In this document: piece after piece, positions 224-1,504 of the stretch
Numbering within the stretch: the stretch's first letter is position 1
How the letters are laid out: each line of letters starts with the position of its first letter
From: Naegleria gruberi
Taxonomy: Eukaryota
NCBI GenBank assembly: GCA_000004985.1
Contig: GG739287.1
Length of the DNA stretch: 2,140 nucleotides
Direction: 5' to 3' (one strand)
The notes under the pieces: model-generated
Seen by the model: only the letters and a program-made list of their open reading frames with translations
Databases searched by the model: none
Told to the model about the DNA's origin: nothing
Position numbers and translations under genes: made by a program

Positions 224-269
224 AGTAAGATGCATTCGAAGAAACTGAGGTGTTACCATTCATCTTACT
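224..269. repeat. Perfect 9-bp inverted repeat (AGTAAGATG ... CATCTTACT) with a 28-nt spacer, in the ORF1 upstream region.
   Basis: Bases 224-232 (agtaagatg) are the exact reverse complement of 261-269 (catcttact). This lies about 210-250 nt upstream of the ORF1 ATG. It could be a protein-binding dyad or a cruciform/hairpin element. Confidence 0.45.
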
Positions 270-381
270 GACTTCTCAATAAGGTTGTTCCACAAATGTT
301 CAACCAATTCAATTCTCAGAAAACCATTGAACTCTATTAAACTCCATTGTAACTGTTGTAATCTTATTCTTTAAAAATTGC

Positions 382-388
382 TATAAAT
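382..388 (+). promoter_or_regulatory. TATA-box-like element (TATAAAT), about 90 nt upstream of the ORF1 ATG. An A-rich, G-poor leader follows at 400-474.
   Basis: I see 'ctataaattc' at 381-390. This sits in the typical yeast TATA-to-ATG distance window (40-120 nt). The stretch between the TATA and the ATG is almost pure A/T/C, like leaders of highly expressed yeast genes. I cannot see a transcription start site from sequence alone. Confidence 0.35.
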
Positions 389-474
389 TCAAATTATCAT
401 TCATTTAATCATTAAACAAATCAAAAAACAAATTCAATAGCTGAATAACTCAAAAACTATTAAAATCTTAAGAA

Positions 475-729
475 ATGACTGAACAAACTCACGAAGAATT
501 ATTCAACCAAAACATGTGTGGAAGTGGTTTGGCATTCAAGAAGGTAGTTCGTGAATTATTCAACAATCGAATTGTTCCTGCTACTAAGAATCTTCAACAA
601 GTCAATCCAAAGATGATCATCTTGTTGGATTGGGCTTCTCTTGCTGCATTTCCAACTGAAACCAAGTACAAGTATGGTGATAGATTTGCTGAAGATACCT
701 TGTTGAATAATTGTATCAAAAATTCTTAA
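475..729 (+). CDS. Small protein-coding ORF of 84 aa with unknown function. It is the first of three tandem same-strand ORFs and looks globular, with no low-complexity stretch.
   Basis: The ATG at 475 is the first in-frame start after an in-frame TAA at 469-471. A sits at -3 (aagaaATGa). The TAA stop is at 727-729. Codon usage is strongly biased (TTG, GCT, TCT, GGT, AAG, GAT, CCA, ACT), typical of expressed yeast genes. The antisense ORF 556-741 lacks this bias. I could not assign the protein (MTEQTHEELFNQNMCGSGLAFKKVV...) to any family by eye. Confidence 0.6.
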   Translation: MTEQTHEELFNQNMCGSGLAFKKVVRELFNNRIVPATKNLQQVNPKMIILLDWASLAAFPTETKYKYGDRFAEDTLLNNCIKNS

Positions 730-752
730 CCGAATGTCCAAGATTGAGCAAT

Positions 753-1013
753 ATGGGTGAAATTGGAAAGGTTTTCATCAAGGATCCTGATTGTAAGGAT
801 GCTTTCATGGGATTGGAAAAGTTGATTTTCAGAGTTGTTCACAATGCTGATAGTAAGGATTCTTCTGGTTTCCTTGGCTATTCTTACAAGGTTAATGGTT
901 CTGATTTGGTTGTCACTTTGGAATGCAATTTGACTCTTGTTATGAAGGTTGCCAATGAAAGACAAAGTCCATCTGCTGATTCTGAAGCTAAAAAGTTGAT
1001 TAATGCTTTCTAA
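753..1013 (+). CDS. Small protein-coding ORF of 86 aa from the first ATG, with unknown function. The frame is open from 711, but the TTG 'start' in the ORF track is not credible in a eukaryotic context.
   Basis: Frame 0 is open from 711 (after a TAA at 708-710) to the TAA at 1011-1013. The first in-frame ATG is at 753, with A at -3 (gcaatATGg). It shows the same codon bias as ORF1 (GGT, GCT, TCT, TTG, AAG, GTT). The protein is MGEIGKVFIKDPDCKDAFMGLEKLIFRVVHNADSKDSSGFLGYSYKVNGSDLVVTLECNLTLVMKVANERQSPSADSEAKKLINAF. Its alternation of hydrophobic strands suggests a small alpha/beta domain, but I cannot assign a family. The ORF may instead be the C-terminal part of a single ORF1+ORF2 protein (see findings). 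Confidence 0.55.
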   Translation: MGEIGKVFIKDPDCKDAFMGLEKLIFRVVHNADSKDSSGFLGYSYKVNGSDLVVTLECNLTLVMKVANERQSPSADSEAKKLINAF

Positions 1014-1024
1014 TGATTTTTTAA

Positions 1025-1504
1025 ATGGCATTACTTAATGAATCAATATTGATATCAATAAAAACAAGCTTCTTTGTTGAATTTGAAACTCAACCAAAAC
1101 AATCATTCTTCCCACAAGTTTCTGCCACTGCACAAACAAAACCAAAAGTGAGAAGAATTGAAATTAATCTTGCTGATCTTTTGGGAATTCCAACAAGTAA
1201 TGAAGCTCAACAACAACCAAAGAAAGAAGAACCAAAGAAAGAAAAGAAAGAAACTACTTCTACACCTCAATCATTCAGAGAATTATTACTTCAAAGAATG
1301 AAGGAAATGAGAGAAGAACAAAAGAGTCAACCATCACAAACTCAAGAAAAGAAACAAGAAGAGAAACCAATTGAAACTTCTCCAAGTGCAGCTGTTGCTT
1401 CTCAGCCGAAAGGAGAAGAATCAATTCAACAACAAGTGAAGGAACAAGAAATTGTTGCCGAAAATACTCCAAATATGACCAGATACAAGACTGCACAAGT
1501 GTAA
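1025..1504 (+). CDS. ORF of 159 aa encoding a Lys/Glu/Gln-rich, low-complexity and probably intrinsically disordered protein. The N-terminus has a short hydrophobic segment. Function is unknown.
   Basis: ATG at 1025-1027 follows an in-frame TAA at 1022-1024, with A at -3 (ttaaATGg). The TAA stop is at 1502-1504. There is a clear 3-nt periodicity of cca/caa/aag/gaa/aga codons. Repeated charged motifs include KKEEPKKEKKE, EEQKSQPSQTQEKKQEEK and QQQVKEQE. The antisense ORF 1275-1496 has no comparable bias. The composition resembles nucleolar or ribosome-associated K/E-rich proteins, but I cannot make a specific assignment. Confidence 0.55.
   Translation: MALLNESILISIKTSFFVEFETQPKQSFFPQVSATAQTKPKVRRIEINLADLLGIPTSNEAQQQPKKEEPKKEKKETTSTPQSFRELLLQRMKEMREEQKSQPSQTQEKKQEEKPIETSPSAAVASQPKGEESIQQQVKEQEIVAENTPNMTRYKTAQV

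Follow-up and report, generated by a model that had tools for sequence, protein, structure and literature searches.

The three closely spaced open reading frames (ORFs) on the plus strand between positions 475 and 1504 of a 2,140-nucleotide stretch of Naegleria gruberi DNA (contig GG739287.1, assembly GCA_000004985.1; we refer to this whole stretch as the window) had been read, in an original prediction made from the letters alone, as a possible yeast polycistron or recoding arrangement. We conclude instead, with a probability that we put at about 85%, that the locus is a mosaic made up of a frameshifted or mis-sequenced paralog of a Naegleria-specific family (ORF1 and ORF2), a linker fragment of the gene NAEGRDRAFT_69945 (ORF3) and a 5S ribosomal RNA (rRNA) relic. 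The apparent yeast module would then be a broken Naegleria gene copy lying beside a gene fragment, and we regard the three pieces as unrelated to one another and as constituting no functional module. The homologies, the 2-nucleotide insertion and the boundaries of the fragment that are described below were all obtained by computation.

ORF1 and ORF2 as parts of one gene

We recovered the three ORFs at the coordinates originally given, namely 475-729 (ORF1, 84 amino acids), 753-1013 (ORF2) and 1025-1504 (ORF3, 159 amino acids), all on the plus strand and separated by spacers of 23 and 11 nucleotides. In order, they occupy frames 1, 3 and 2, each step being one of -1 or, equally, of +2. The frame of ORF2 is already open from position 711, giving an overlap of 19 nucleotides with the end of ORF1, and an overlap of this kind is the signature of a frameshift inside one gene rather than of two genes. 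By homology, ORF1 and ORF2 are the two halves of one gene of a Naegleria-specific family whose product has 178 amino acids. Their conceptual fusion matches P0001, an N. gruberi protein of that length, at 93% identity and 100% coverage (E = 8e-105), and it also matches two metagenome-derived proteins. The cluster of proteins at 90% identity around P0001 contains five further N. gruberi gene models, situated on different scaffolds, and together with P0002, P0003, P0006 and P0007 it brings the family to at least 10 annotated copies. Its members, including NAEGRDRAFT_54296, _63263, _52426, _74215 and _54911, are annotated in N. gruberi as "predicted protein" of 178 amino acids. When two A's are removed from the window copy its protein is identical to P0013 (NAEGRDRAFT_54296) at 176 of 178 positions, with just 2 differences, which assigns the locus to N. 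gruberi, or to some very close relative of it, and not to a yeast. The description of the locus as yeast-type is also at odds with its homologs, since every one with a named source is from N. gruberi (Heterolobosea). The window thus appears to hold a new, broken or mis-sequenced member of a family that had already been annotated.

The first part of the family gene occupies 475-720 on the plus strand (codons 1-82, frame 1), that is, ORF1 minus an out-of-frame tail at 721-729, and is colinear with P0001, P0013 and other members. The second part follows at 723-1013 on the same strand, in frame 3, and comprises codons 83-178 and the TAA stop codon. The ATG at 753 that had been taken as the start of ORF2 corresponds to an internal Met of the family, residue 93, which is Leu in contig L001. 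Between the two parts, at 718-722 on the plus strand, there is a run of five A's which has two A's more than are found in the family. For comparisons at the DNA level we used two contigs carrying family copies, L002 (approximately 92% amino acid identity) and L001 (67%). Their alignment with the window has a gap of two columns at this site, as L001 and L002 read ATC/ATT AAA TTC and the window reads ATCAAAAATTC (ATC AAA AAT TC), and in the alignment with either contig the additional AA is the sole indel at the ORF1/ORF2 junction. In addition, all of the family proteins that extend across the site have NNCIKFL (...LLNNCIKFLTECPR...) in a single frame. With two extra A's (A5 in place of A3) the frame changes, so that translation begun at 475 would terminate at 727-729, and the 96 codons left over show up in the following frame as an ORF of their own, ORF2.

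What does the pattern of substitutions on the two sides of the A-run tell us? In the family frame, comparison of the window with L002 gives a ratio of nonsynonymous to synonymous substitution rates (dN/dS) of 0.12 overall, 0.20 before the shift and 0.09 after it, and these low values on both sides indicate that the two "ORFs" evolved as one protein. The end of that protein is particularly well kept, as the C-terminal KKLINAF followed by a stop codon is present in all the full-length homologs, including the copy in L001 that is just 67% identical. After repair, the window copy resembles the rest of the family in its amino acid sequence (93-99% identity), its start, its KKLINAF C-terminus and stop, and a conserved upstream block of about 230 nucleotides, and differs from it in that the frame is split by the 2-nucleotide insertion and in having Phe in place of Leu at the otherwise invariant position 59. 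One of the explanations first proposed for the locus, a single ancestral gene broken into pieces, is consequently upheld for ORF1 and ORF2, whose homologs are uninterrupted over 178 amino acids, and fails for ORF3, which comes from a different gene. Uninterrupted orthologs had been named at the outset as the observation that would speak against a three-gene module, and uninterrupted homologs are what we found for ORF1 plus ORF2.

The function of the family is less easily approached. Searches of Pfam with the three ORFs and the fusion gave nothing above cut-off, and a profile search of the PDB with the family protein gave no match. An AlphaFold2 model of P0001, made from an alignment of six sequences, had a predicted local distance difference test (pLDDT) score of 37.8 and was unusable. 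No relatives of the family were found in JGI metagenome contigs or in viral contigs, and in our literature search we found no paper that mentions the locus tags of the family or of P0008, the protein product of NAEGRDRAFT_69945. What emerges from the sequences is a family that is present in many copies, has a strong codon bias and a promoter block that is conserved, and seems to undergo rapid gain and loss of copies.

ORF3 as a fragment of a second gene

ORF3, on the evidence of alignment, is an isolated internal fragment of an unrelated gene, NAEGRDRAFT_69945. An exhaustive HMMER search matched residues 12-153 of ORF3 to residues 212-344 of P0008 (456 amino acids) with 84% identity (E = 1.2e-51), the two having a run of 59 identical residues in common, and matched ORF3 to P0009 (419 amino acids, encoded on the Logan contig L003) with E = 2e-7. 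A word-indexed protein search had returned no match for ORF3, and this was a false negative, as P0008 was in the collection and was found there by the exhaustive HMMER search. Both P0008 and P0009 have weak matches, below the curated cut-offs of Pfam, to PB1 in the N-terminal region and to an NBR1-type UBA domain in the C-terminal region, and it is the low-complexity linker lying between these two matches to which ORF3 corresponds.

The limits of the fragment could be defined closely. In tblastn searches with P0008 and P0009 against the six frames of the window, similarity was confined to 1055-1480 (linker residues 211-343) and was strong from 1088, and there was no PB1 or UBA sequence in any of the six frames. 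The copy of the disordered linker is therefore placed at 1088-1480 on the plus strand (P0008 residues 222-343), with weak similarity that may reach back to about 1055, and the ORF of 1025-1504 on the same strand is a mechanical product consisting of 21 codons with poor or no homology, the fragment, seven unrelated codons and TAA. At its 3′ end the homology breaks off at 1480, within a motif, TPNMTTSLLLSN, that is common to P0008 and P0009. In L003 the parent gene forms one ORF without interruption, and the product encoded there is colinear with P0008 from residue 1 to residue 456, from which it follows that the ends of the fragment are not exon boundaries. Relative to NAEGRDRAFT_69945, whose arrangement of PB1, disordered linker and NBR1-type UBA is reminiscent of the autophagy receptors NBR1 and p62, the fragment has an insertion of 10 codons and a deletion of one codon, and both of the flanking domains are missing.

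In its codon use ORF3 is also distinct from its neighbors. A strong bias shared by all three ORFs had been claimed, but the codon use of ORF3 departs from that of ORF1 and ORF2: the ratio of AAG to AAA for Lys is 14:2 in ORF1/2 and 8:10 in ORF3, Leu is encoded by TTG at 12 of 19 positions versus 2 of 9, the codons ATA, TCA and ACA are absent from ORF1/2 and occur three, six and four times, respectively, in ORF3, and the fraction of A at third positions is 0.21 versus 0.55. The ORFs are nevertheless more than products of chance, ORF1 and ORF2 in view of their match to real proteins and ORF3 because its open run of 159 codons was equaled in 0 of 5000 shuffles of positions 1014-1513, in which the mean longest run was 52. 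Even so, the coding appearance of ORF3, both the length of its open frame and the periodicity of its composition, can be attributed to inheritance from the parent gene, and in simulations 10-30% of runs kept the frame open after 20-40 neutral substitutions, so that no selection is needed to explain why it is open.

We envisage that a piece of linker of approximately 390 nucleotides was duplicated to a position about 75 nucleotides past the stop codon of the family gene, and that it would have stayed open as a fairly recent copy of A-rich, T-poor coding sequence, with a chance ATG supplying the "start." Immediately before that ATG, at 1025, stands a TAA in the same frame. ORF2 and ORF3 are probably not translated as proteins.

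We considered, and rejected, the idea that the family gene is nested within an intron of the gene for the PB1/UBA protein. The copy of the parent gene in L003 has no introns and is colinear with P0008, and at the 3′ breakpoint, 1480, which interrupts a conserved motif, there is no GT. The gene for P0009 extends from 2563 to 3822 of L003, a Logan contig of 7.3 kb derived from run SRR25266747, on which neither a family gene nor a 5S gene was found.

Mutation or sequencing error

Is the frameshift at 718-722 present in the organism? On balance we think it probable that it is a real and recent pseudogenizing mutation. A less likely explanation, though one that deserves to be taken seriously, is an error of sequencing or assembly, in which case the homopolymer would have been miscalled, the gene would be intact in the organism and the division into ORF1 and ORF2 would be an artifact, with ORF3 still a fragment. 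The position of the lesion within a homopolymer fits an error, as does the state of the remainder of the copy, which is identical at 176 of 178 residues to an intact annotated gene and bears the mark of purifying selection on either side of the site. However, a +2 miscall in a run of three A's would be unusual on any platform, the window copy has the unusual Phe at position 59, and other copies of the family are also damaged, which indicates that real decay is common in it.

The damage in the other copies takes several forms. L001 has a TGA at a conserved Trp (680-682) and L002 a TAA at a conserved Glu/Asp (971-973), and in both the conserved coding sequence continues beyond the stop. The gene call for L001 in ENA renders its TGA as Trp. 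Five of the annotated proteins, P0002, P0003, P0006, P0007 and P0012, look like gene models that were built around lesions. Segments are skipped in the models for P0002 and P0003, the latter omitting exactly 19 residues around the site of the frameshift in the window, the tail of P0006 is read in a shifted frame, P0007 becomes chimeric past residue 67 and P0012 is without an N-terminus. Each of the three DNA copies that can be read has exactly one lesion, different in each case, and yet still looks selected. This pattern would be explicable by recent decay, by gene conversion or by assembly errors at low coverage, and we consider it improbable that it reflects tolerated recoding or read-through, or that ORF3 is a young decoy mini-protein, even when these are taken jointly.

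Some of our own observations weigh against the mosaic as we have described it. The window copy shows almost no decay other than the frameshift, which must accordingly be either very recent or an error. Likewise, ORF3 and P0008 are set apart by two indels, of 1 and 10 codons, both of which are in frame, and ORF3 contains no stop codon. The in-frame indels and the open frame mildly favor continued coding constraint, although slippage in repeats rich in AAG, AAA and GAA can also give rise to indels of this sort.

Alternatives to the mosaic

Could the three ORFs nevertheless be expressed from a functional polycistronic messenger RNA (mRNA), initiated at the TATA box at 382-388 and translated by leaky scanning or by termination-reinitiation? 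The features that suggest it are the tight spacing on one strand, the TAATG at 1011-1015, the position of the ORF3 ATG directly after a mini-ORF and the extent to which ORF3 is open, well past chance for its composition. Against these stand the identities of the ORFs themselves. ORF1 and ORF2 do not encode independent proteins but supply residues 1-82 and 83-178, respectively, of a single conserved protein, the ATG of ORF2 is an internal and nonconserved Met codon, the first 21 codons of ORF3 have no clear homology and most of what follows them was copied from another gene without any of its domains. Moreover, homology with L001 and L002 stops at the family stop codon, and ORF3 is absent after the gene in both. 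There is also an AATAAA before most of ORF3, which is a weak argument against a spanning mRNA. The genome architecture of Heterolobosea has been described as monocistronic (bioRxiv 10.64898/2026.07.29.740908), and our literature search found no report of polycistrons in Naegleria. We regard a polycistron as extremely unlikely. Nor is there much to commend the proposal that ORF3 is joined by splicing to a family copy as a C-terminal extension, or that it is expressed as a mini-protein derived from the linker, either of which we judge very unlikely. GT...AG pairs that would preserve the frame do exist (e.g., 995...1068, an intron of 74 nucleotides), but the donors are nonconsensus (GTTGAT, GTCCAT) and about one-third of random GT/AG pairs would be in phase. 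The KKLINAF C-terminus and its stop codon are conserved even at 67% identity, the ribosome would not reach the spliced exon if the frameshift lies upstream of it, and no homolog with such a fusion was found in the protein searches. In favor of a mini-protein, ORF3 retains two linker motifs common to P0008 and P0009, RRIEINLADLLGIP and QSFRELLLQRMKE, and its indels are all in frame. Were it expressed, a mini-protein that keeps these motifs in the absence of PB1 and UBA could act as a decoy or competitor.

The remaining proposal, a programmed -1 (or +2) frameshift at the A-run that would yield the full protein of 178 or 179 amino acids, seems to us barely credible. It is true that a -1 slip on the AAA at 718-720 gives ...NNCIKKFLTECPR..., which is the family sequence with one extra Lys, and that the three readable DNA copies, with one lesion apiece, still look selected. 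Viral -1 frameshift sites consist of a heptamer of the form X XXY YYZ with a pseudoknot, and UAAUG-type motifs are associated with termination-reinitiation. The site in the window reads AUC AAA AAU, or C AAA AAU, which is not such a heptamer, and in pseudoknot-free folding the 100 nucleotides downstream of it (724-823) have an energy of -20.3 kcal/mol, compared with a mean of -20.5 for shuffles (z = 0.07). No homologous DNA copy, and no protein covering the site, has a shift there, and the lesions elsewhere in the family differ from this one in kind and in position. The recoding arrangement first suggested for the locus is thus left without a canonical slippery heptamer, a stimulatory structure or a shift in any relative. 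More generally, the resemblance of the locus to eukaryotic bicistronic mRNAs and to -1 frameshift sites is superficial, consisting of short spacers, -1 changes of frame, the TAATG overlap and an A-run, whereas the defining features of such systems that could be tested in the window are lacking.

The mosaic that we propose has closer counterparts among duplicated, non-processed pseudogenes and gene-fragment duplicates. It combines one recent frameshift in an otherwise intact paralog with an adjoining, domain-less piece whose breakpoints ignore the boundaries of domains and motifs, and it is unlike typical examples in that the linker fragment is still fully open. We would place nothing in the window outside the known kinds of genome feature, and consider the fragment an ordinary gene-fragment duplicate. 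The locus should be annotated as a gene fragment beside either a pseudogene or a candidate assembly error, and it suggests that 5S relics and stretches of coding sequence build up next to members of the family. For ORF-based scans in general, it would be prudent to check whether neighboring ORFs overlap in frame before operon-like modules are claimed.

Upstream and downstream sequence

A conserved block that probably represents promoter and 5′-untranslated sequence lies at 235-474 on the plus strand and includes GGTTGTTCCACAAATGTTCAACC (283-305) and the TATAAAT box, which is present at 382-388 as the original prediction had it. By blastn, window positions 235-467 match 289-521 of L002 at 73% identity (E = 5e-32) and positions 273-363 match 351-434 of L001 (E = 2e-11). 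Conservation upstream therefore reaches even the 67%-identical homolog, and includes, in addition to GGTTGTTCCACAAATGTTCAACC and the TATAAAT, the motif ATTGTAAC at 346-353. These motifs are probably promoter elements shared by the family, and a conserved upstream block with a TATA-like box fits one promoter serving one gene.

Shortly past the family stop there is a candidate poly(A) signal, AATAAA, at 1057-1062 on the plus strand, and in both L001 and L002 an AATAAA is also found within 20 nucleotides of the family stop. If Naegleria uses AATAAA, the family mRNA would end near 1057-1062, before most of ORF3. A single set of 3′-end signals had been proposed at about 1562-1600, but this stretch falls within a match to 5S rRNA on the minus strand, at 1518-1619, that was detected with cmscan (RF00001, model positions 1-120). 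The match scores 23.8 bits, compared with a gathering score of 38, and has an E value of 0.056 over the window and 0.0066 locally. Helix I, the 3′ domain of helices IV and V and the T-run at the 3′ end are recognizable in it, whereas the middle 51 positions of the model are replaced by 35 AT-rich nucleotides that include a run of five T's, and the sequence folds no better than shuffles (z = -0.99). We interpret 1518-1619 as a degenerate relic, probably a decayed 5S copy and not a working gene. A decayed copy is unremarkable, because approximately 279 copies of 5S have been reported for N. gruberi (PMC3369914).

The order of family gene and 5S may not be peculiar to the window. L002 ends, about 85 nucleotides past its family stop, in the same 13 nucleotides, AAAAGACTACAGC (E = 0.068 for a 13-nucleotide match), and a gapped alignment of its spacer with the window scored approximately three standard deviations above shuffles, a value that the highest of 300 shuffles also reached. 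The spacer matches are no more than suggestive when taken alone, and we used them only jointly with the 5S-like match. Together they suggest, marginally, that L002 has the same order of gene and then 5S without most of the fragment. The other Rfam matches in the window were all far under threshold, and no transfer RNA genes were found in it.

Minor features of the window were also recorded. Around the end of ORF2 the sequence at 1011-1027 is TAATGATTTTTTAAATG, in which the stop codon of ORF2 overlaps an ATG (the TAATG at 1011-1015) that opens a mini-ORF of three codons in the frame of ORF3, and the TAA of this mini-ORF abuts the ATG of ORF3. The arrangement resembles motifs for termination-reinitiation and is probably due to chance in AT-rich sequence. 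On the minus strand, antisense to ORF2, an ATG-initiated ORF of 101 amino acids extends over 726-1031, and most likely arises as a side effect of codon composition on the sense strand. Finally, the far 5′ end of the window contains a perfect tandem repeat of TACATGTC, present in 2.8 copies at 36-57.

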